Virus record (IMG/VR): IMGVR_UViG_2778261643_000013
Direction: 5' to 3' (one strand)
DNA length: 36,636 nt
Source: a virus
Lineage: Duplodnaviria > Heunggongvirae > Uroviricota > Caudoviricetes
Shown here: positions 15,999 through 35,745 of the stretch, piece by piece
Position numbering within the stretch: position 1 is the stretch's first letter
How the letters are laid out: the number at the start of each line of letters is the position of its first letter
Notes under the pieces: model-generated
Seen by the model: the letters and a program-made list of their open reading frames with translations, nothing else
Databases searched by the model: none
Told to the model about the DNA's origin: nothing
Program-made: the position numbers and the translations under genes

Positions 15999-17756
15999 TC
16001 ACAGAATTAACAGGTCCTCATCAGGATCAAGCGTGGACAGAAAGTCATTCACGCCCCCGCCATTTACCAGAAAGCGGCTCATGGCTGTAAAAAGCGCAAC
16101 AGGGCCGTCGATTTTGGCTTCCGGCGTGGATTTATTCGGGAAGATGTTGTCGTTTTTGTCCGGTTTTACAGTAACGTTAGACATCATCCAGTTCATGACC
16201 GGATGATTGCTGTGATGGAAACGCCCGGCATAAACCAGTGATTCCGTTTCCTTCATGGCCTCTGACAGATTGCGGACCGTCTGCGGAACCTCCACCAGCG
16301 GTATCCCTTCTTCAGCCAGTGCCAGGCTGAACTGCATTGCGCTCCACGGGTCAAATCCCAGTTCCCTGAGGTTTTCACCGCCAATCCATTCCAGTAAGTC
16401 ACTTTTTATCTGAGCATGATCGATAACATCACCATCAGTCAGGATGAGCTTATCCATCTCCGCCCACTTCCGGTAAAGTTCTGCCTGCTGCCGCGAGCAT
16501 CGTTCCAGCCGTCCTTCCGGAAGCCAGAATTTAAAATCAGCATGAACATGTCCGTTATCGGTTCGCCAGAGTTTTGCCGCCGCACAGATATCAATCTTAT
16601 GAGCAAGGTCGACGCCGACCCACATGGGATATGTTTTCAGCTCATGTTGTGGAGCAATGTATTCGCACTTCTCCCACTTAATCATATCCATCCAGGCAGA
16701 TTCGGCAGTGACCCACACATTCATGTGTTTGGTAAAAAAATTCACCCGCGCAGAGACCTGCTCCTTCGCTTTTTTCGCCAGACGACGCAGATCATCCCAG
16801 CGTTTACAGATGCCCAGGCCAGGATTCGCTTTCTGCCAGACCGTTTCATCAAACGGATCATCTCCCTCATCGAGCGTGTAAATGATCGCAAAGTAAGAGT
16901 CGTCTTTTACAGCGCCCTCCACGTCGCTGTTATAGCCTCGCAATACCTTGATGGCGTAATCACGCTGCTCGTAACAAATCCCTTCCTTGTTAAAGCCAGC
17001 CGTGGTGATACCAAATAACAGGGACTGCAGACGGGCACCGGTTGCTGTTTCCAGAACGTCCCACACGTCGCGGGTTTTATGTGCATGCAGCTCATCAATA
17101 ATGGCACAGTGGATGTTCAGACCGTCCAGATTGTTTGCATCCGAGGAAAGCGGTTCAAATTTTGATGCGCTCTGCTCCTGGTAAATCGCCAGCTTGTTGA
17201 AGTCAAACAACCGCCCGAGTGTCGACCGGGCTTTTCTGACCATATTTTTGGCGTCTTCAAACACGATTCTGGCCTGATCACGCGTGGTTGCGGCTGAATA
17301 CACCTCAGCACCACCTTCACCATCTGCCCCCGTCATATACAGACCGATACCCGATGACAGGGTTGATTTTGCGTTTTTACGGGCGACTTCGTTGTACGCC
17401 GTCCGGAACCGGCGCACCATCACCGGGCGTCCACTGCCATCGCTGCGCATGACAACTTCCCCGGTCTCTTCATTCACCAGCGGAATGACAAAACCAAAAA
17501 TATTAATGAGGATAAATACATGCCAGTCCATCAGTTCAATGGGCTGGCCTGCCAGCGCCCCTTTCACATGAGGCACAAATTTGTAGAAATTCAGGATGTG
17601 CTGCGCACGGGGTTCACTGAAATAAATCCCCCGCTCTTCGCCGTACTTCAGATCATCAAGAAAACGCTGGCAGGCTAGGCGGACAAATTCGCCAGCAACA
17701 ATTTCTCCTGCAACAACACGTTCGGCGTAGCGGATCCCGTCAGCCACTTTTGCCAT
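15999..17756 (-). CDS. Terminase large subunit
   Basis: 585 aa; position after TerS with 1-nt stop/start overlap. Confidence 0.9.
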   Translation of the reverse strand: MAKVADGIRYAERVVAGEIVAGEFVRLACQRFLDDLKYGEERGIYFSEPRAQHILNFYKFVPHVKGALAGQPIELMDWHVFILINIFGFVIPLVNEETGEVVMRSDGSGRPVMVRRFRTAYNEVARKNAKSTLSSGIGLYMTGADGEGGAEVYSAATTRDQARIVFEDAKNMVRKARSTLGRLFDFNKLAIYQEQSASKFEPLSSDANNLDGLNIHCAIIDELHAHKTRDVWDVLETATGARLQSLLFGITTAGFNKEGICYEQRDYAIKVLRGYNSDVEGAVKDDSYFAIIYTLDEGDDPFDETVWQKANPGLGICKRWDDLRRLAKKAKEQVSARVNFFTKHMNVWVTAESAWMDMIKWEKCEYIAPQHELKTYPMWVGVDLAHKIDICAAAKLWRTDNGHVHADFKFWLPEGRLERCSRQQAELYRKWAEMDKLILTDGDVIDHAQIKSDLLEWIGGENLRELGFDPWSAMQFSLALAEEGIPLVEVPQTVRNLSEAMKETESLVYAGRFHHSNHPVMNWMMSNVTVKPDKNDNIFPNKSTPEAKIDGPVALFTAMSRFLVNGGGVNDFLSTLDPDEDLLIL

Positions 17757-18238
17757 CAGTCTCTCGCTTTTAAAAGCTCCGCCAGCGGATCAACATCATC
17801 CGGTCCGGCGGTATTTACTTTCGCCCGGCTTGCCGGTGACATACCAAATTCTGCAAGCATCGCCCGGATCCGCTTCCAGGCATCCGCTTTCATCGCAGCA
17901 GCCGGGTGTGCCTTAATCAGCACATCACCGTTCTGCGTTTCCGTGCGGTAGGTATACCCCTCAACATCGAGTGTTTCGCAGTGATGCCGGTATTCGGTGT
18001 AGGCTTCCACCAGTAACTCGAGTGCACGCGCATCAAGCTGAGAAATGATCCCTTCCGCATTCAGTTCTTCCGCCATTCGCCTGAACCAGTACTTCCCCTG
18101 CGACCCTAAATGTTGCGGAATTTTAGGGAGACATTTTTCATCCTTTTTAGCGGTTTTTTTTGGGTCTTTAACGGGGCGCTTTGAGGGGTTGCCTCGTATC
18201 AAATGCAGGCGTGGCGGGGTTTTCAGGGGTCCTGGCAT
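17756..18238 (-). CDS. Terminase small subunit (P27-like)
   Basis: 160 aa, basic N-terminus; directly upstream of TerL. Confidence 0.8.
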   Translation of the reverse strand: MPGPLKTPPRLHLIRGNPSKRPVKDPKKTAKKDEKCLPKIPQHLGSQGKYWFRRMAEELNAEGIISQLDARALELLVEAYTEYRHHCETLDVEGYTYRTETQNGDVLIKAHPAAAMKADAWKRIRAMLAEFGMSPASRAKVNTAGPDDVDPLAELLKARD

Positions 18239-18385
18239 AATCTATTTTACCTATCAATCATTTAATCACATTCCAAAAAAAAGTTTTCGAACCTGCGGCG
18301 ATGCGAGGAAAGGTCAGGCGGCGGTACTGAACAGCCAGGGTTGCAGAGATTTGACCCGCCCCTCCCCTGCAGATGGGAGCTGTTA
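18239..18385. other. Candidate cos / packaging-signal region
   Basis: 147-bp non-coding gap between HNH and TerS, the usual cos location in HNH-terS-terL phages; GC-rich AGGTCAGGCGGCGG block. Confidence 0.25.
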
Positions 18386-18736
18386 TCAATTGATGCGTTC
18401 GCGCGCTGTTTTTGCTTTATGACAGGGCCAGCACAGACTCTGCAGGTTACTGTCTGCATCCGTGCCACCATGAGCTTTCGGAATGATGTGGTCCACAGTT
18501 CTGGCTTCAACGGCTCTCCCATTGCGCAGGCAGTTCTGACACAGATGATTATCACGCTTCAGTATGCGCGCACGTATGGCATCCCATTTCGAGCCATAGC
18601 CACGCTGGTGGCGGCTCAGTCCGCGTTGATGCTGTACCCATCCTTCGCCACGATGTTTATCGCAGTAACCAGAACTGTCTGTGGTTGTACCTGCACATCC
18701 ACGCTTACGGCAGGCGCGTGGGATTAGTGCTGGCAT
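18386..18736 (-). CDS. HNH endonuclease (packaging-associated)
   Basis: 116 aa with Cys-rich zinc-finger and ...VDHIIPKAHGG...N...LCWPCH... HNH motif. Confidence 0.85.
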   Translation of the reverse strand: MPALIPRACRKRGCAGTTTDSSGYCDKHRGEGWVQHQRGLSRHQRGYGSKWDAIRARILKRDNHLCQNCLRNGRAVEARTVDHIIPKAHGGTDADSNLQSLCWPCHKAKTARERIN

Positions 18737-18874
18737 GTTTCGCCCTTATATAAATCAAAGGTGACCTGCATTGAGTATCTCCATGGAATAGATTTGCTGC
18801 TGATATGAGACAGATCAATAGACTTCATGAGCCAACGGGTGTAGATATTACTTTTTACTTCAGAGGGTTAACTC

Positions 18875-19414
18875 ATGGATATTAAAGATAAAATCAATAC
18901 CATTTTGTTATGTGACATTGCCATCCACCTAGGTATCGAAACTGATATTGATCCACAGCTTGTTAAATATGCTGTGTCATCTGGTAATGATTGGGTTATC
19001 AAGGCCGAATATTCACATTTGGATGTTGACGAACCAAGTAAAGAAGATCGTGATTTTGTTACTGCTGTCTTGAATATGTATCGCGGACTTTCCAATACTT
19101 TCAGGAAACTTAGTGATGACGAGCAAAAAGAATTAGTCCGTGACCATCATCTAAAAATACATGATGGGGCAATTCAGCTCCCAGGTTTCGACGGTAATAA
19201 TGAATGCGATTACTTCAGTATCATTGAGGCGTATCAGAAATTTGATCGCTTCCCCGAACAGAAACAGCCCATTGCCAATACTCATTCACTTACAGAACAT
19301 CTCTATAACGCAATGCTTGATGAGTGTAAGAAAATTGACGCTGTAAATCGAAGCTGGGATTTATCGAAGGAAGAACTGGCATCCATTCTTTCCACAGCTC
19401 CACGCAGTTTCTAA
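18875..19414 (+). CDS. YfbU-family (UPF0304) protein, moron opposite to the late operon
   Basis: 179 aa; ATG at 18875 with GAGGG SD; AT-rich relative to flanks; resembles E. coli YfbU from memory. Confidence 0.7.
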   Translation: MDIKDKINTILLCDIAIHLGIETDIDPQLVKYAVSSGNDWVIKAEYSHLDVDEPSKEDRDFVTAVLNMYRGLSNTFRKLSDDEQKELVRDHHLKIHDGAIQLPGFDGNNECDYFSIIEAYQKFDRFPEQKQPIANTHSLTEHLYNAMLDECKKIDAVNRSWDLSKEELASILSTAPRSF

Positions 19415-19419
19415 GTGCT

Positions 19420-19686
19420 TTAGGCGGGTTTCCAACCCGCCTTATTATGCTCGCATATAGAGAAGGAAGCACCCAAATTAACCAGCGCGGATTTCTTTTC
19501 CTCAATACGGCTGTCAAGTTCAGCAACTGCATGCGGGCGTATGGCCTCAAGAAAAGCACTATATTGATAGGCAGACTGGATTGTCACACCAAGCCCTGCA
19601 CCACTTTCCAGTATACCTTTCTGTCGCTGTAGCTCTTTCATCTCGTTATAGATGTAATGTGCGTTACTTAGGTTTTCTACGTTCAC
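19420..19686 (-). CDS. Hypothetical protein (88 aa), doubtful
   Basis: GTG start, weak SD, 3' end runs through the hairpin at 19422-19442. Confidence 0.25.
   Translation of the reverse strand: MNVENLSNAHYIYNEMKELQRQKGILESGAGLGVTIQSAYQYSAFLEAIRPHAVAELDSRIEEKKSALVNLGASFSICEHNKAGWKPA
19422..19448 (+). terminator. Strong hairpin after the YfbU-like gene (AGGCGGGTT-TCC-AACCCGCCT)
   Basis: 9-bp stem with 3-nt loop, 8 nt after the stop; weak U tract (TATTAT). Confidence 0.5.
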
Positions 19687-19841
19687 GCCCTAAGTTCTTC
19701 CTGCAGTTAGCCTGCACTGATTTGTTATGCGCCAATATGTCCCGCTTCGTCTGTTGCATTATCATAAGTAATAGCGTAGGTTGACACCTTGGCTCTCTTT
19801 CGCCACCGACGAATCTTCAGCGGATTATCCTTGGCCGGTTT

Positions 19842-20309
19842 TTATCTGAGACATTGCTCACGAATGTATAGCTGTGCCCCTTCCAGTTGCTTCTGCATCG
19901 TCATCAACCGTTCTCTGAGGGTGAAATAATCCCGTTCAGCGGTGTCTGCCAGTCGGGGGCTGGTTGCATTATCCACGCTGGTGGGTCCGGTGGCTTCACG
20001 CACGGCTGCGGAGCAACTGGCATTGACCCGCAGGCGCTTACGACCAGCGGCAACATCAGCGCGCAGAGTTTCATTTTCAGCTTTCGCATTGGCTAATTCT
20101 CTCGAGTACTTTGCATCGAGCGCAGCAACATCACGCTGACGCTGCTGCATGTCAGCGATGGTGGCGGTCGCCTGCTTCAGCTCACTGACTTTTTTATCAC
20201 GCTGTTCTTTGTAGGCGATGGCGTTATCACGGTAATGATTGACCGCCCACGACAGGCAGACGATGGTGCAGATAACCAGAGTATAAATAATCGCTGCGAC
20301 TCTGCTCAC
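19842..20309 (-). CDS. Rz: i-spanin Rz
   Basis: GTG at 20309 overlapping the endolysin stop; N-terminal TM then coiled coil; SRVAAII...[14 protein letters not shown] matches lambda Rz from memory. Confidence 0.8.
19904..20089 (-). CDS. Rz1: o-spanin Rz1 (lipoprotein) embedded in Rz
   Basis: 61 aa in a second frame inside Rz; lipobox LVVSAC and proline-rich body. Confidence 0.75.
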
Positions 20310-20839
20310 TGATCTATCCCCCAACAGGCTAATGCGCTTTCCTGGTCACGACGAATAACCTGTCCATAGCAGTTATTTGAACGTATGCGGCAATCGCGCC
20401 CACCATCTTTTATCCACCAGCGAATCGCCTCGCATGCGCCCTTGCGATCACCGGCATTCAGCCGCTTATAAAACGTCGACGGGAAACACTTACCGGGGCC
20501 AATGTTATAGGGACAGAATGACGCTATACCCGCTTTCTGTGGTTCGGTCAGTGGTACTTTAATATTGCGCTCCACCCATGCCAGCGCCTTATCACGTTCA
20601 ATAGCGTTAACCTGGTCGCATTTTTCCTTCGACAGCTTCATTCCCGGTATGACGGGCTTACCATCCACCATTGTGGCACCACGACAGATGGTCCATATAC
20701 CGGAACCATCGCGGTATGCCGTAGTGTGGTTACCCTCTTTTTCATCCAGAAACTGGTCAAGTATTTGAGGAGCAGACGCGCCTGCAGCAATCAGCGCCAG
20801 AACCGCAGCTGACAGGCCGTATTTGATTTTTGCGCTCAT
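20306..20839 (-). CDS. R: SAR endolysin (T4-lysozyme-like)
   Basis: 177 aa; Gly/Ala-rich N-terminal signal-anchor-release helix; E...D...T catalytic triad spacing. Confidence 0.85.
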
Positions 20840-20894: not shown

Positions 20895-21209
20895 CTAACA
20901 ACCTGTAATCGAGTTATCAGAACTGTTAATTTTTATGGTATACCGCGCCTCTGAACAGGGGCGCGTTTCTGGCAACAGCTCGTCCCTTTCACATAACCCG
21001 GCAGCAACATCCAGGAAGACCTGTCTGATGCTCCTTCTGGCTGCTGCCTCATAAAACTCCAGCGCGGCACCTTCAACACGGTCCAGCGAGATGTCCAGGT
21101 CAAAAATTTCACCGTCAAAGCGTTTTTTGTCCCGTAATGCTACAGTTACCGCAACTTTATTCTCAAAATTGCGGATCCCTTTCACAATCAGTTCATAGTT
21201 TTGAGTCAT
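20895..21209 (-). CDS. Hypothetical protein (104 aa) between holin and endolysin
   Basis: ATG at 21209 with GGAGAG SD, 4 nt after the holin stop; no recognisable motif. Confidence 0.5.
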   Translation of the reverse strand: MTQNYELIVKGIRNFENKVAVTVALRDKKRFDGEIFDLDISLDRVEGAALEFYEAAARRSIRQVFLDVAAGLCERDELLPETRPCSEARYTIKINSSDNSITGC

Positions 21210-21213
21210 TGAA

Positions 21214-21429
21214 TTACTCTCCCCGTGCAGCCTTACGCTTGTCTTCTCTGATTTTGAAGTACAGATTTGTCAGATAAGTCAGGAAGCCCAGAACCAGACT
21301 CCCCAGTACACCAATCGCAGCCCACTGTGACGGACTGACCTGATCAAGCCACTGTAAAAACCAGTAGCCAGCACTGCCTGCGGAGGTGCCGTAGGCAATG
21401 CCCGTTGAAATTTTGTCCATGGATTTCAT
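21214..21429 (-). CDS. S: Class II holin (phage 21 S-type pinholin), dual-start
   Basis: 71 aa [29 protein letters not shown]... with Met1 and Met4 starts, two TM helices. Confidence 0.85.
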
Positions 21430-21721: not shown

Positions 21722-21796
<75 letters not shown>

Positions 21797-21799
21797 ATA

Positions 21800-21875
<76 letters not shown>

Positions 21876-21877
21876 AC

Positions 21878-21954
21878 TGGACCGCCACCGGGGACTCGAA
21901 CCTCGCACACTCAACTTAAAGGGTTGACGCTCTTTCCTGATGAGCTAGTGGCGG
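21878..21954 (-). tRNA. tRNA-like gene of uncertain identity (anticodon loop CCUUUAA)
   Basis: 77 nt; perfect 7-bp acceptor stem, normal D and T arms, 5-bp anticodon stem; positions 34-36 read UUU but position 33 is C and discriminator is U. Confidence 0.55.
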
Positions 21955-21955
21955 C

Positions 21956-22031
21956 TGGTGGCCCTTGCTGGATTTGAACCAGCGACCTGGCGATTATGAG
22001 TCGCTCGCTCTCACCACTGAGCTAAAGGGCC
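21956..22031 (-). tRNA. ileZ: tRNA-Ile2 (anticodon CAU, ileX/ileZ-like)
   Basis: 76 nt; anticodon loop CUCAUAA; closely resembles E. coli ileX rather than elongator tRNA-Met. Confidence 0.75.
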
Positions 22032-22134: not shown

Positions 22135-22160
22135 ACAAAAAACCCGCTTGTGGGCGGGTT
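22135..22160 (-). terminator. tR'-like intrinsic terminator downstream of the late promoter
   Basis: AACCCGC-CCACAA-GCGGGTT followed by TTTTTG on the minus strand. Confidence 0.6.
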
Positions 22161-22213
22161 TTGTTTGCTTTTGCCATCACGTACAAAATCGGCAAAATAT
22201 CAGATTTGCATGA

Positions 22214-22242
22214 AATATATGCCTTTCAATCTACTTTTGCAA
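22214..22242 (-). promoter_or_regulatory. Candidate late promoter pR'
   Basis: -35 TTGCAA, 17-nt spacer, -10 TATATT; overlaps the 3' end of the Q-like gene. Confidence 0.5.
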
Positions 22243-22915
22243 CACTTTGCTTTGAAAATGCCGCCTTTTGTTTTGAACGTGTTCTCATTACAAACAATAA
22301 AGCCTCACTATCCAGTCGGTGAAAAATGTGTTTCATTGCAACCCAGTGACGAGTAAATGTTTTGGACCAGTTTTTAGTTGTCACTCCCGCCAGTAATGCC
22401 AGCTCCTGGTATTCATAACCTTCCCCACCAAAAAGTTCTGCTTTTACTGCCTGCGCCGCCAGCCAGATTAATTTTTTCAGGCGTTCCTGCGTTTTCCCTG
22501 CAATTTTTCTGGTACCGGATTGAGTATTAAATTCATTCCACGCCCACTGTGTTATCGCGATCTGATATTCCCAACAAATACTCCCGCTGTAACACCACAA
22601 CAACCAGGCTTTATGATGTTCTTCAAGAGACAGAACAGCCCGCCGCCACGATGATGTCGAAAACTCAACCGGACTGACGAGAGGAATTGACGTCCCCTTC
22701 GCCAGCGATTGCTTTCCCGGGATTGGTGGATTATCCCGCGTTATCATTTTTCCAGTCACTTCATCGCGGTACCGGATTTTTTTACGCCTGTAACGCCCTG
22801 TATCAAACATGGCATTCTCCTGCCAGGCCTCAAGCTGCCCTTTTGTTGATCCACTCAAATCGGCGGTGGCAATCATGAGTTGCTCACGAACAAACTGTAA
22901 ATACTGGTTATTCAT
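22226..22915 (-). CDS. Putative late-gene antiterminator (Q-like)
   Basis: 229 aa immediately upstream of pR'/tR'; ATGA overlap with rusA stop; assignment by position, not by recognised sequence. Confidence 0.5.
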   Translation of the reverse strand: MNNQYLQFVREQLMIATADLSGSTKGQLEAWQENAMFDTGRYRRKKIRYRDEVTGKMITRDNPPIPGKQSLAKGTSIPLVSPVEFSTSSWRRAVLSLEEHHKAWLLWCYSGSICWEYQIAITQWAWNEFNTQSGTRKIAGKTQERLKKLIWLAAQAVKAELFGGEGYEYQELALLAGVTTKNWSKTFTRHWVAMKHIFHRLDSEALLFVMRTRSKQKAAFSKQSVAKVD

Positions 22916-26023: not shown

Positions 26024-26440
26024 CTATAAATAACGAAAATTTCTCTGATAAAATGCCAGTATGCGCTGCATAACTTCGCTCTTCCGGCACTCACAGCAAA
26101 TTATGTTTTGGTGCCTGTCATAACGACGTATTTCTCCGTCAGGTAATGACCAGATAAGGTCCGGATCAACCACAGATGGTTTCTTCACCTTTGCCCTAGA
26201 TAGTTTTTTACGGGCATTTTGCCAGTCCTTACGAGCCTGTTCAGACGGGAATAACCCGTAGCCAGAGTTGTATACATCGCCACTGGCAACCAGCTCTCTG
26301 GCCAGAACGCTCATCAGATATCTTGTTGCCCCAGTTTTAGCTTCCAGTTGTCGTAACGTCTCGCGCCCACTCTGGCGTACGAGTTCAAGAACCTGCCCTT
26401 TAATTTTTTCCCGCTCTTCTTGTGTAAAAACTTTTGCCAC
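26024..26440 (-). CDS. Hypothetical protein (138 aa)
   Basis: GTG start with AGGAGGG SD; contains CCEC motif. Confidence 0.5.
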   Translation of the reverse strand: MAKVFTQEEREKIKGQVLELVRQSGRETLRQLEAKTGATRYLMSVLARELVASGDVYNSGYGLFPSEQARKDWQNARKKLSRAKVKKPSVVDPDLIWSLPDGEIRRYDRHQNIICCECRKSEVMQRILAFYQRNFRYL

Positions 26441-31874: not shown

Positions 31875-34316
31875 ATGAGCACTGATAAAGAAGAATTTGC
31901 ACTATATTGCGAAGCAAAAAATGACAAAGTAAGAAAACGCCTAGGAATTAAAGGTGGTTTTTACTGGACTACAGCAAAAAAATTATCTGTTGCAATCTCC
32001 CGCTGCATTACCGCAATGGATGACAACGATTATGATGAAGACGACTTTAAAAAACCCGTCCGCGTCAATTTGCCCGTTGTTGACGACCTTCCGCCAGAAG
32101 GCGTGTTTGATACTGAATTCTGCAACCGCTATGAAAAAGGCGGGAAAGATGGCATCACAATGACATTTATCGGCCCTTCCCCCTCTGTTCAGGACAAACC
32201 AGCCAGCACTGACAATACCAACATCAACGGCGAAGACATGACTGAGATTGAGGAGAGCATGCTTCTGCCTGTCTCCGGTCAGGAACTGCCCATTCGTTGG
32301 CTTGCTCAACACGGCAGCGAAAAACCAGTAACGCACGTTTCACGCGACGAACTCCAGGCATTACACATTGCACGGGCTGAAGAACTACCGGCTGTTACTG
32401 CCCTGGCTATTTCGCATAAAACCAGTCTGCTCGACTCGCTGGAGATTCGCGACCTCCACAAACTGGTTCGTGACACTGACAAAGTTTTCCCTAATCCTGG
32501 TAATTCAGACCTGGGACTAATAACTGCTTTTTTCGAAGCATACCTGGACGCTGACTACACTGATCGGGGTCTGCTGACAAAAGAGTGGATGAAAGGAAAT
32601 CGTGTTTCACGCATCACCCGCACGGCTTCCGGTGCTAATGCTGGCGGTGGGAACAAAACCGATCGCAATCCGAATTTAGTACACACCCTCGACACACTGG
32701 ATGTGGAGATTGCAGCAGCCACACTTCCGATGGATTTTAATATTTATGAAATTCCGGGCAGCGTTTATCGTCGCGCAAAAGAAGTAGTCCTGAACAAAGA
32801 AAGTCCGTTCAAAGAATGGTCCGCAGCACTTCGTGCAACCCCGGGTATTCTGGACTATTCCCGCGCCGCTATTTTTGCACTTATCCGAAGCGCACACCCT
32901 GAATTTTATCACTACCCGGGACGCCTTCAGGGGTATATCAACGCCTATTTGACGGAAACTGATCACGAGACCCCCAGCAAGGAAACTCTCACAGCTGCCC
33001 GGCATACGCCGGAAAAAGATATCCTGGAAGAAATTAACCGCGAGGTGGTTACTGAGCGTGAAACAGAAGAAGAAAAACCACAACCATCTGACGCAATGGC
33101 AGGTGAACAGGCAACAACTGAAACAATGGAACCGGATACAACTGAACATGGCCAGAACGCGCAGTCGCTGGATGCTCAGTCGCAGGTGAGTTCCGCTAAC
33201 CAAGTAAAAGTCACCGCTGACGAAGTAAACAAAATTATGCAGGCAGCCAATATCAGCCAGCCTGACGCCGATAAGTTACTTGCTGTATCGCGTGGTGAAT
33301 TTGTTGAGGGGATTAGCGACCCTAATGATCCGAAATGGGTCAAGGGGATCCAGACTCGCGATTCTGTGAACCAGAACCAGCATGAATCGGAACGGAACGA
33401 CCAAAAAGCGGAACAAAACAGCCCAAATGCGTTACAAAACGAGCCAGAAACGAAACAATCCGAACCAGTAGCGCAACAGGAACCGGAAAAAGTCTGCACC
33501 GCCTGCGGTCAGAGCGGTGGCGGCAACTGCCCTGATTGTGGCGCGGTGATGGGCGACGCAACATACCAGGAAACATTCGATGAAGAGAATCAGGTTGAAG
33601 TTCAGGAAAATGATCCGGAGGAAATGGAAGGCGCTGAACATCCACACAAGGAGAACCCTGGCGGCAATCAGCATCACGCCAGCGATAATAAAACTGGCGA
33701 GGCGACAGATCCCTTAATTAAGGTGAATGGTCATCATAAGCTCACATCCACCAGCAGAGCGGGGATTCATCTGATGATCGACCTTGAAACCATGGGAATA
33801 AATCCCGATGCCCCGATTATCTCAATAGGCGCAATATTTTTCGATCCACAAACCGGAGATATGGGACCGGAATTTAGCAAGACCATCGATCTGGATACTG
33901 CTGGCGGAGTCATTGATCGTGACGTCATTAAATGGTGGCTGAAGCAATCACGTGAAGCGCAGTCTGCCATTATGACCGATGAAATCCCGTTAGATGATGC
34001 ACTACTGCAATTGCGGGAATTTATCGACGAAAACTCCGGTGAATTTTTTGTTCAGGTCTGGGGTAATGGGGCCAACTTCGACAACGTGATTTTACGCCGT
34101 TCATACGAACGACAGGGTATCCCCTGCCCATGGCGCTACTGCAACGATCGCGATGTACGCACAATCGTTGAGCTGGGGAAAGCCATAGACTTCGATGCCA
34201 GAACTGCTATCCCATTCGAAGGTGAGCGCCATAATGCACTTGATGACGCTCGTTACCAGGCAAAATACGTTTCAGCTATCTGGCAAAAACTGATCCCGAG
34301 TCAGGCTGATTTTTAA
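31875..34316 (+). CDS. Large multidomain protein: RecE-N-like region, zinc ribbon, C-terminal DEDDh 3'-5' exonuclease
   Basis: 813 aa; CTACGQSGGGNCPDCG zinc ribbon (33496-33543); C-terminal MIDLETMG, WGNGANFD and HNALDDARYQ exonuclease motifs (33760-34313); occupies the exo/recE slot before xis-int. Confidence 0.7.
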   Translation: MSTDKEEFALYCEAKNDKVRKRLGIKGGFYWTTAKKLSVAISRCITAMDDNDYDEDDFKKPVRVNLPVVDDLPPEGVFDTEFCNRYEKGGKDGITMTFIGPSPSVQDKPASTDNTNINGEDMTEIEESMLLPVSGQELPIRWLAQHGSEKPVTHVSRDELQALHIARAEELPAVTALAISHKTSLLDSLEIRDLHKLVRDTDKVFPNPGNSDLGLITAFFEAYLDADYTDRGLLTKEWMKGNRVSRITRTASGANAGGGNKTDRNPNLVHTLDTLDVEIAAATLPMDFNIYEIPGSVYRRAKEVVLNKESPFKEWSAALRATPGILDYSRAAIFALIRSAHPEFYHYPGRLQGYINAYLTETDHETPSKETLTAARHTPEKDILEEINREVVTERETEEEKPQPSDAMAGEQATTETMEPDTTEHGQNAQSLDAQSQVSSANQVKVTADEVNKIMQAANISQPDADKLLAVSRGEFVEGISDPNDPKWVKGIQTRDSVNQNQHESERNDQKAEQNSPNALQNEPETKQSEPVAQQEPEKVCTACGQSGGGNCPDCGAVMGDATYQETFDEENQVEVQENDPEEMEGAEHPHKENPGGNQHHASDNKTGEATDPLIKVNGHHKLTSTSRAGIHLMIDLETMGINPDAPIISIGAIFFDPQTGDMGPEFSKTIDLDTAGGVIDRDVIKWWLKQSREAQSAIMTDEIPLDDALLQLREFIDENSGEFFVQVWGNGANFDNVILRRSYERQGIPCPWRYCNDRDVRTIVELGKAIDFDARTAIPFEGERHNALDDARYQAKYVSAIWQKLIPSQADF

Positions 34317-34374: not shown

Positions 34375-34578
34375 ATGAGCAGCTTATTTTTAACCGAAGA
34401 TGAATTGCTAATATTAACGGGCTGCAAATATGCAAGCCACCAGCGAAAATGGTTAATGGAAAACGGGCTTCCGTTCTATACCAATCGTAGTGGCAAACCG
34501 ATTGTCAGCCGGGATCTATTTACCTGCAATAAAACTTTACCACCACGCGAGGTAGAGCCGAATTTTGGTGCGATCTGA
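34375..34578 (+). CDS. xis: Excisionase-like protein
   Basis: 67 aa immediately upstream of int with ATGA overlap. Confidence 0.6.
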   Translation: MSSLFLTEDELLILTGCKYASHQRKWLMENGLPFYTNRSGKPIVSRDLFTCNKTLPPREVEPNFGAI

Positions 34579-35603
34579 TGGGAAGACGAAGGAAAAATCC
34601 TGAACACGAAAAATTACCTCCAAATGCATACCCAAATAAATATAGTTATGTATGGAAACCAACATCCAGAGAATCTGTCACACTAACCGCCATCAAGGAT
34701 GGTTTAGCTGCTTTATGGAAAAAGTATGAGGAAACTGTAAATAATCGCGATCGTGCAATGACATTCGGTCGCTTGTGGGAAAAATTCCTCGCCAGCGCCT
34801 ATTACAGTGACCTTAGTCCAAGAACACAAAAAGATTATCTGCAACATCAAAAAAAGTTGCTTGCCGTATTCGGTAAGGTACCAGCGGATTCCATAAAACC
34901 AGAACACATCCGTCGATACATGGACAAAAGAGGGGAGCAGAGTAAAACACAAGCCAACCATGAAAAAAGCAGTATGTCCCGTGTTTACAGTTGGGGGTAT
35001 GAGCGAGGGTACGTCAAGGCTAACCCATGTGCAGGTGTAAGTAAATTCAAGGCCAAAAACCGCGAACGATATGTAACCGACAAAGAATACCAGGCAGTAT
35101 TAAGCGTTGCACCTCTTCCTGTTTTTATCGCAATGGAAATTGCCTATCTGTGTGCAGCGAGGGTTTCCGATGTGTTATCGCTGAAATGGGAACAGATTGG
35201 AAACGACGGGATATTCATCCAGCAAGGGAAAACCGGAAAAAAACAGATAAAAGCATGGAGTCCACGATTACAGGCAGCGATCGAAAAAGCAAAACAGTTA
35301 CCAAAATCTGCCTATGTGATCAGCAATCAATACGGCAACCGATATATGTACAAAGGCTTTAACGAAATGTGGGTAGAAGCAAGAAATCGTGCTGGAAAAA
35401 TTTCAGGTATTTTAACCGACTTCACCTTTCATGATCTGAAGGCGAAAGGAATTTCAGACTATGAAGGAAGCAGCCGGGATAAGCAACTTTTCTCTGGTCA
35501 CAAAACCGAAGGGCAAGTGCTAATCTATGACAGGAAGGTTAAAGTTTCACCAACACTTGATGTCCCGTTACCTGAAAATATTCCAAGAAAATATTCCAAG
35601 TAA
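34578..35603 (+). CDS. int: Tyrosine-type site-specific integrase
   Basis: 341 aa; catalytic ...ARVSDVLSL..., ...HDLKAKG..., ...VLIYD... ; adjacent to the tRNA 3' end. Confidence 0.9.
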   Translation: MGRRRKNPEHEKLPPNAYPNKYSYVWKPTSRESVTLTAIKDGLAALWKKYEETVNNRDRAMTFGRLWEKFLASAYYSDLSPRTQKDYLQHQKKLLAVFGKVPADSIKPEHIRRYMDKRGEQSKTQANHEKSSMSRVYSWGYERGYVKANPCAGVSKFKAKNRERYVTDKEYQAVLSVAPLPVFIAMEIAYLCAARVSDVLSLKWEQIGNDGIFIQQGKTGKKQIKAWSPRLQAAIEKAKQLPKSAYVISNQYGNRYMYKGFNEMWVEARNRAGKISGILTDFTFHDLKAKGISDYEGSSRDKQLFSGHKTEGQVLIYDRKVKVSPTLDVPLPENIPRKYSK

Positions 35604-35655: not shown

Positions 35656-35745
35656 TGGCGGAGAGAGGGGGATTTGAACCCCCGGTGGAGTTGCCCCCAC
35701 TCCGGTTTTCGAGACCGGTCCGTTCAGCCGCTCCGGCATCTCTCC
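35656..35745 (-). tRNA. serU: tRNA-Ser (anticodon CGA), integration target
   Basis: 90 nt with long variable arm; anticodon loop CUCGAAA; 3' end faces int. Confidence 0.85.

Follow-up and report, generated by a model that had tools for sequence, protein, structure and literature searches.

A YfbU-fold gene in the lysis–packaging slot of a lambdoid Escherichia coli prophage as a candidate single-gene defence moron

We analysed a 36,636-nucleotide stretch of viral DNA (IMG/VR record IMGVR_UViG_2778261643_000013, hereafter the window), which is a near-complete lambdoid Escherichia coli prophage with all of its late genes on the − strand. Between the lysis gene Rz and the HNH endonuclease gene that begins the packaging module lies ORF179 (18875–19414, +), an ATG-initiated gene for a 179-amino-acid (aa) protein of YfbU fold, encoded antisense to the late operon; the opposite-strand gene of this length in the original prediction, made from the letters of the DNA alone, is real. 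We propose that ORF179 may act as a lysogen-expressed, single-gene defence against superinfecting phages, akin to the lactococcal protein Kamadhenu, and we give this reading, which is built on analogy, an even chance of being correct. It is favoured because ORF179 has the anatomy of a moron in an exchangeable slot and because, among relatives alike in size and fold, the one that has been studied experimentally acts in defence.

The predicted protein has the two-domain, all-helical YfbU fold. The Pfam YfbU model PF03887 matches residues 46–172 at 41.2 bits against a gathering threshold of 25 (45.7 bits for the Klebsiella copy), the AlphaFold 2 (AF2) model has a predicted local distance difference test score (pLDDT) of 91.5, and a 36-sequence family profile reaches the YfbU structures 1WPB and 4LR3 at E 4.7e-9. 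A single-sequence phmmer search of the PDB with ORF179 returned no YfbU structure, only a chance match to stathmin. Profile alignment with hhalign of the ORF179 clade to E. coli YfbU gives a probability of 95.8% and E 7.6e-9. With the Pfam score above threshold and the fold in agreement, the description of the protein as YfbU-like holds, and RefSeq already labels it "YfbU family protein". It is not, however, an orthologue of chromosomal yfbU, since the NCBIfam YfbU equivalog NF003936 gives only 32.6 bits against a cutoff of 90, and identity to E. coli YfbU is 15–17%; the earlier label, YfbU/UPF0304-like, is to be read without orthology. The chromosomal gene is flanked by a DUF412 gene and hxpA in a housekeeping locus (ackA side), a context that ORF179 does not share.

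Within the family, a neighbour-joining tree places ORF179 in type B (N-terminus KLIxxLLCD/E) and canonical YfbU in type A (RLILxNQY). The G-F-D triplet, E110 and Y113 are common to all 92 members sampled, and H137 occurs in 88 of them, including the Kamadhenu-like protein, with Q at this position in E. coli YfbU. Most of the sampled loci were fetched by the pattern GFDGNNE, and this choice itself accounts for part of the motif's conservation. The profile finds at least 2077 clusters (50% identity, E ≤1e-3) among 1.84 billion representatives, only three of which fall in the close prophage clade.

The functional analogy comes from Kamadhenu, a 180-aa, single-gene, YfbU-domain, abortive-infection-like antiphage protein of the lactococcal plasmid pUCCL624_130 (Grafakou et al. 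2024, PMC11381338; BioProject PRJNA1086404). Against every Skunavirus and Ceduovirus phage tested, Kamadhenu protects completely, and each escape mutant carries a change at G22 in a Sak-like single-strand annealing protein (SSAP) (PMC12184496). It leaves phage replication, transcription and translation unaffected, and a later step is therefore suspected (PMC13064643). In E. coli, deletion of yfbU abolished mazEF-dependent death after DNA damage (PMC2646832). The functionally tested part of the YfbU superfamily thus consists of Kamadhenu and, by deletion phenotype only, E. coli yfbU (PMC11381338, PMC12184496, PMC2646832), which corrects the earlier remark that YfbU has no established function.

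ORF179 (179 aa) and Kamadhenu (180 aa) both carry the PF03887 domain, and ORF179 is likewise borne by a mobile element, the window being a prophage and its homologues lying in IMG/VR contigs. A tblastn search of plasmids with ORF179 did not reach Lactococcus, which was reached with a Christensenella relative as bridge query. A frameshifted, 180-aa lactococcal YfbU-family copy is present on pUCCL629C (L100:4257–4798), from the same strain collection as Kamadhenu, and an intact lactococcal protein of 180 aa, P0311, is 96% identical to its reconstruction. Aligned with hhalign, the P0311 clade, which is presumed but not confirmed to represent Kamadhenu, matches the ORF179 clade with a probability of 98.7% (E 1.8e-16, 27% identity over 136 columns). 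The P0311 gene (L261:833–1375), on a contig of 34 kb, has an integrase gene and the gene for a lactococcal phage repressor as neighbours, and the Kamadhenu-like clade therefore also occurs in prophage-like elements.

Judged by its signals, ORF179 reads as a self-contained moron, imported cargo with its own ribosome-binding site, weak promoter and terminator, set antisense to the late operon. The Shine-Dalgarno sequence AGAGGG (18862–18867, +) is spaced 7 nt from the ATG and has an AGG core that does not vary among six homologues drawn from four genera. Beginning 8 nt past the stop codon is a GC-rich hairpin (19422–19442, +) with a 9-bp stem, AGGCGGGTT-TCC-AACCCGCCT, followed by TATTATG; its free energy is −17.6 kcal/mol (z-score −2.7 against shuffles), and it is the probable intrinsic terminator of ORF179. 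Both signals had been noted in the original prediction. A strict terminator scan did not call the hairpin because its T-tract (TATTATG) is weak. On the − strand the 3′ flank is AAAGCAC, with no U-tract, and the element therefore looks like a one-way terminator serving ORF179. Post-stop hairpins occur in most of the homologues checked, with differing stem sequences and often with T-runs next to them. A tentative promoter element upstream, the weak −10-like hexamer TAGACT (18819–18824, +), which has no good −35 partner and received no call in a consensus scan, is suggested by an alignment of homologues in which it shares columns with TATAGT (Enterobacter) and TAGAAT (Providencia). Rfam yielded no known RNA family within 18737–19871.

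The gene is maintained by selection and is accessory in distribution. Its ratio of nonsynonymous to synonymous substitution rates (dN/dS) is 0.07–0.14 at dS up to 1.5, and ORF179 is thus under strong purifying selection. In the prophage clade, length is constant at 179–180 aa across genera and nine residues are invariant (C13, A33, W40, G104, F105, D106, E110, H137 and Y144); truncated homologues of 143–156 aa also exist (P0028, P0030, P0034 and P0037). ORF179 was found in 236 of 5426 complete E. coli genomes (~4%), chromosomal in every case, and in 224 of these 236 a single place spans at least 80% of the query 18737–19700. Strains CAU16175 and NS-NP030 are natural lysogens in which this query is matched at 100% identity.

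Comparison with close relatives of the prophage shows that ORF179 is dispensable and of foreign origin. By blastn, the sister phage vB_EcoM-606R7 matches positions 18000–18736 at 96.6% and 19872–20600 at 94.5% identity with no match between, its gap between HNH and Rz being 72 bp. The breaks at 18736 and 19872 therefore delimit a variable, imported segment at 18737–19871, 1135 bp from the HNH start codon to the Rz 3′ end, within which the last 10 codons of Rz fall. The GC content is 0.391 in ORF179 (GC3 0.344) and 0.42 in the segment, compared with 0.507 for the whole window and 0.51–0.54 for the flanking genes. Horizontal acquisition of an AT-rich stretch, as first proposed, is thus supported by both the empty site in a 94–97% identical sister phage and the low GC content, but the right limit lies at 19871 rather than at the 19686 first given.

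Over 18057–19753 the window shares its gene order, at 80% identity, with a Klebsiella prophage locus (L013): TerS, HNH, the YfbU-like gene and a homologue of ORF88, the convergent gene beside ORF179. Between ORF88 and the lambda-type Rz lies the 3′ remnant of an o-spanin of Klebsiella/Enterobacter type (19667–19756, −), with 77% identity to residues 38–67 of the 67-aa Klebsiella o-spanin (tblastn E 4e-15). This remnant marks the recombination joint of two different lysis cassettes. Taken together with the Klebsiella colinearity, it indicates that the HNH–terminase/YfbU-like/ORF88 block joined a lambda-type lysis cassette by recombination inside the spanin gene.

The site itself is an exchangeable cargo slot. 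Lambda bor is a lysogen-expressed moron downstream of Rz, and the proposed parallel with its position proved apt, for in the sister phage vB_EcoS-733R4 the slot is occupied by bor itself (PF06291, 104 bits), likewise antisense, together with a DUF4347 fragment; a further phage, PhiR49_2, has two other orphan genes there. ORF179 has neither a PF06291 match nor a lipobox, yet it shares with the lambdoid bor-slot morons an accessory distribution, a place in the interval between Rz and the packaging genes, the opposite strand and signals of its own. Homologues with 58% (Enterobacter) and 50% (Providencia) identity lie, again on the opposite strand, between lysis genes and a lambda-type DUF1441/GpA terminase.

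Recurrence at this position, which had been suggested as a check, was surveyed in 78 IMG/VR loci with a YfbU-like gene. Recognisable lysis genes lie within 3.5 kb downstream on the opposite strand in 72 of these loci, and packaging genes lie upstream on the opposite strand in 56; the group with 30–40% identity is included in both counts. In spot checks, one locus (L235) had the pair Terminase_2/Terminase_6C upstream and, downstream, a gene for a GH19 endolysin; another (L250) had Rz downstream. The neighbouring terminases are of the Terminase_4 plus HNH, DUF1441/GpA and Terminase_2/6C kinds, so that at least three unrelated terminase types, among those identifiable, stand beside the gene. For Tai defence genes, the location reported in most cases is "upstream of the packaging module" (PMC11364771).

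ORF88 (19420–19686, −), which converges on ORF179, had been called doubtful, but it is a genuine conserved late-strand gene. It matches phrog_5415 at E 5.9e-38, has homologues in 276 clusters of 90% identity in Escherichia, Klebsiella, Citrobacter and Salmonella, and shows dN/dS of 0.13–0.40. The usual length in the family is 76 aa, with SFS at the C-terminus; the E. coli lineage of the window has lost this stop codon, and 12 extra codons (19423–19458) read through the terminator hairpin of ORF179. AF2 predicts a two-helix hairpin for ORF88, with the extension at pLDDT <50 and predicted disordered. A fold search with this model gave no match at E <1, and PADLOC 2023 gave no match to ORF88. In lysis cassettes of the Klebsiella type ORF88 overlaps the end of the spanin gene and therefore behaves as the last gene of the lysis module. 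A 192-aa gene located after an ORF88 homologue in Citrobacter does not resemble YfbU (hhalign probability 0.08%), and the small ORFs beside the Enterobacter and Providencia YfbU-like genes are not ORF88 homologues.

Where ORF88 homologues are followed by alternative cargo, the genes are orphans of 126–226 aa, mostly antisense, with no Pfam or PADLOC match. Three of them contain HEPN-like RNxxxH motifs, read directly from the sequences: LRNAFLHE, ARNSAHH and MRNDLAHN (L137:4306–4869, +; L147:4264–4854, −; L182:4306–4920, −). These motifs hint that the slot collects genes of abortive-infection type.

Under the defence reading we infer lysogenic expression, an anti-phage phenotype, a trigger and an antisense shut-off for ORF179. 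The repressed prophage would express the gene during lysogeny, and superinfection would trigger the protein; if Kamadhenu is a guide, the trigger would be a phage SSAP or its DNA intermediates. The triggered protein would then block a late step of the invader's cycle. When the resident prophage is induced, Q-antiterminated late transcription would run antisense through ORF179 and damp its expression, and the antisense placement probably permits shut-off of ORF179 during resident late transcription. The prophage also encodes an 813-aa protein similar to RecE/exonuclease VIII (31875–34316, +; phrog_607), whose annealing-protein partner would matter if the YfbU-like protein senses such proteins.

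Several points weigh against a defence function. The consensus scan found no sigma-70 promoter on the + strand upstream of ORF179. The relationship to Kamadhenu is a distant one: P0311 is only presumed to be Kamadhenu itself (pUCCL624_130), ORF179 and the Kamadhenu-like protein are 24–30% identical, with the first ~28 residues unaligned, and the neighbour-joining tree puts the Kamadhenu-like protein among the canonical YfbU proteins of type A rather than with the type-B group of ORF179. No model in PADLOC 2023 matches ORF179, its type-B relatives or the Kamadhenu-like protein, a null result that is uninformative because the library predates Kamadhenu. Such strict conservation of position might instead mean that the gene serves the resident phage in lysis or packaging.

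Two other functions for a selected gene have to be considered. As a prophage-borne paralogue of YfbU, ORF179 might modulate host physiology, altering stress- or DNA-damage-triggered death and so tuning lysogen survival or induction. The death phenotype of the E. coli yfbU deletion, the common fold and the residues shared with chromosomal YfbU (G104, F105, D106, E110, Y113 and Y144) speak for such a role. We nevertheless consider it unlikely: the two proteins are far apart in both identity and equivalog score, chromosomal YfbU has Q in place of the nearly constant H137, the death-gene report is one study that offers no mechanism, and the closer functional analogue is a defence gene. The gene might instead serve the resident late cycle, for example in lysis timing or as an aid to packaging, a role that would explain its constant place at the lysis–packaging junction. 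Consistent with this, the position is kept down to 30% identity and beside the several terminase types, and Kamadhenu is suspected to act on late steps (PMC13064643). Yet genes of the ORF179 type are always opposite to the late genes and have their own terminator, the gene is absent from the 94–97% identical sister phage, others carry bor or unrelated genes in its place, and its low GC marks it as foreign cargo; a developmental accessory role is accordingly quite unlikely.

Less probable still is a two-gene module in which ORF179 is a toxic or defence effector and ORF88 an antidote or self-immunity factor made in the lytic phase. In its favour, ORF179 and ORF88 are convergent neighbours that in the window overlap one hairpin, they are inherited as a pair in E. 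coli and Klebsiella, and prophage defence genes such as BstA are known to have self-immunity partners. Both genes occur together in 35 of 78 ORF88-family loci and in 36 of 78 YfbU-like loci, the latter having copies at least 88% identical. The remaining 43 ORF88 loci have other cargo or none, however, and 42 of the 78 YfbU-like loci, among them all with at most 81% identity, have no ORF88. Across the prophage clade no partner gene is kept; in Enterobacter and Providencia the genes alongside are spanins or unrelated ORFs, and ORF88 acts like a last lysis gene where it overlaps the spanin end. A type II toxin–antitoxin pair was rejected, as the genes are convergent rather than co-oriented and co-occur in fewer than half of the loci. 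That ORF179 is an inert passenger, a horizontally transferred gene in decay with no current function, is very improbable: it is accessory, has low GC and no strong promoter, and truncated copies exist, but the strong purifying selection, the constant length and nine invariant residues across genera, and the 224 of 236 E. coli genomes with one place covering at least 80% of the query all argue otherwise. On balance we favour the reading of ORF179 as a Kamadhenu-like defence gene.

Other members of the family show variation in architecture and carriage. About 20 of the 150 best family representatives are 224–251 aa long with an N-terminal extension of ~55 aa (P0182, P0190, P0194 and P0219; L058, L024 and L063). 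The extension scores 18.7 (P0190) and 20.4 (P0194) bits with Pfam RHH_1, the CopG-type, DNA-binding ribbon–helix–helix (RHH) family, just below the threshold of 20.5, and these proteins appear to be RHH–YfbU fusions. On bacterial contigs of Pseudomonas, Psychrobacter, Marinomonas, Alteromonas, Arcobacter and others, type-B YfbU-like genes have a conserved protein of 164–173 aa encoded 10–22 nt upstream on the same strand, with one N-terminal membrane helix and no Pfam or PADLOC match. Such loci include L029:4465–4968, L035:4468–4968 and L034:4452–4973, and the same arrangement is found in L030, L032, L036, L038, L048, L050, L051, L054, L055, L059, L068, L073, L076 and L084; this looks like an undescribed two-gene operon. 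The P2-like Yersinia phage vB_YenM_324 (Peduoviridae) carries a type-B YfbU-domain gene annotated as hypothetical (L102:3956–4534; PF03887, 83 bits), located near its right end after the tail-fibre genes. YfbU-family genes are also common on small plasmids (3–13 kb) of Acinetobacter, Psychrobacter and Pseudomonas (H54, H60–H62, H65 and H124) and occur on 260 Enterococcus plasmids, a distribution that fits a family borne by mobile elements.

A broader proposal, which we offer tentatively and regard as unlikely, is that YfbU-fold proteins form a large, pan-bacterial and partly mobile abortive-infection family of which ORF179 represents the prophage branch. In that case the lambdoid lysis–packaging junction would serve as a slot dedicated to defence, and cargo lying antisense within the late operon would confer built-in self-immunity on the resident phage. 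The type-B genes paired with a one-helix membrane protein and the RHH fusions would be versions of one sensing module, and the E. coli yfbU "death gene" would be a domesticated copy.

The remaining genes of the region follow lambdoid order. To the right of the slot, the i-spanin gene Rz (19842–20324, −; PF03245, 167.5 bits), with Rz1 (19904–20089) embedded in it, is followed at higher coordinates on the − strand by genes for a lysozyme (20306–20839), a DUF1327 protein (20895–21209), a holin (21214–21429) and a Q-like antiterminator (22226–22915). To the left, HNH (18386–18736, −; PF01844, 60.4 bits; phrog_144) is the first gene of the packaging module, with the P27-type small terminase TerS at 17756–18238 (−) and the large terminase TerL at 15999–17756 (−); HK97-type head genes are also among the late genes. 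Four phage tRNA genes (Gly-TCC, Thr-TGT, Lys-TTT and Met-CAT; 21722–22031, −) lie between the Q antiterminator and the holin. Just downstream of Q, a weak match to the Hfq-binding small RNA isrK (22137–22209, −; 22.7 bits against a gathering threshold of 50, E 0.076) may be due to chance. A tRNA-Ser (CGA) gene (35656–35745, −) adjoins an integrase-like gene (34578–35603) and is probably the attachment site. Another candidate for an accessory or exclusion function in this prophage is an early-region gene for a Ren-like exclusion protein (26024–26440, −; phrog_142, E 4e-46).

The YfbU fold and the Kamadhenu defence class are already known. We believe that the link of the enterobacterial prophage clade to Kamadhenu is new, as are the strict conservation of the slot across very divergent copies and terminase types and the partner and fusion variants among the YfbU-like relatives. 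If the defence reading is correct, the Kamadhenu/YfbU-fold class would extend from dairy lactococci to prophages of E. coli, Klebsiella, Enterobacter and Providencia. It would then provide a tractable E. coli model for a Kamadhenu-type system and a first concrete handle on the long-uncharacterised UPF0304/YfbU family, and the lysis–terminase junction would be worth mining for new defence genes. Should it fail, the locus would still illustrate clearly how the cargo of a moron slot can be exchanged.

Among known systems, lambda bor resembles ORF179 in slot and antisense orientation, and the likeness is purely positional, as Bor is a 97-aa PF06291 lipoprotein unrelated in protein to ORF179. Tai and other prophage defence genes (PMC11364771) are likewise comparable in position, being moron-type genes just before lambdoid terminase genes that protect against phages; Tai blocks tail assembly, and no sequence relation to ORF179 is implied. 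The Gifsy-prophage defence protein GiPD474 was set aside as an unrelated ATPase located in the immunity region. E. coli YfbU (1WPB, 4LR3), which crystallises with 16 chains, has the same fold as ORF179 but differs in having GFDAATE and Q in place of GFDGNNE and H137 and in being encoded at a housekeeping locus rather than in a prophage, and a single-sequence search does not link the two. Whereas Kamadhenu comes from a Gram-positive plasmid and ORF179 from the prophage lysis–packaging slot of a Gram-negative host, both are mobile-element-borne genes for proteins of ~180 aa with the YfbU domain and fold, ORF179 being, like Kamadhenu, a putative single-gene system, and the Kamadhenu-like protein and ORF179 share the GFDGN(N/E)E, N(S/T)H and Y motifs.

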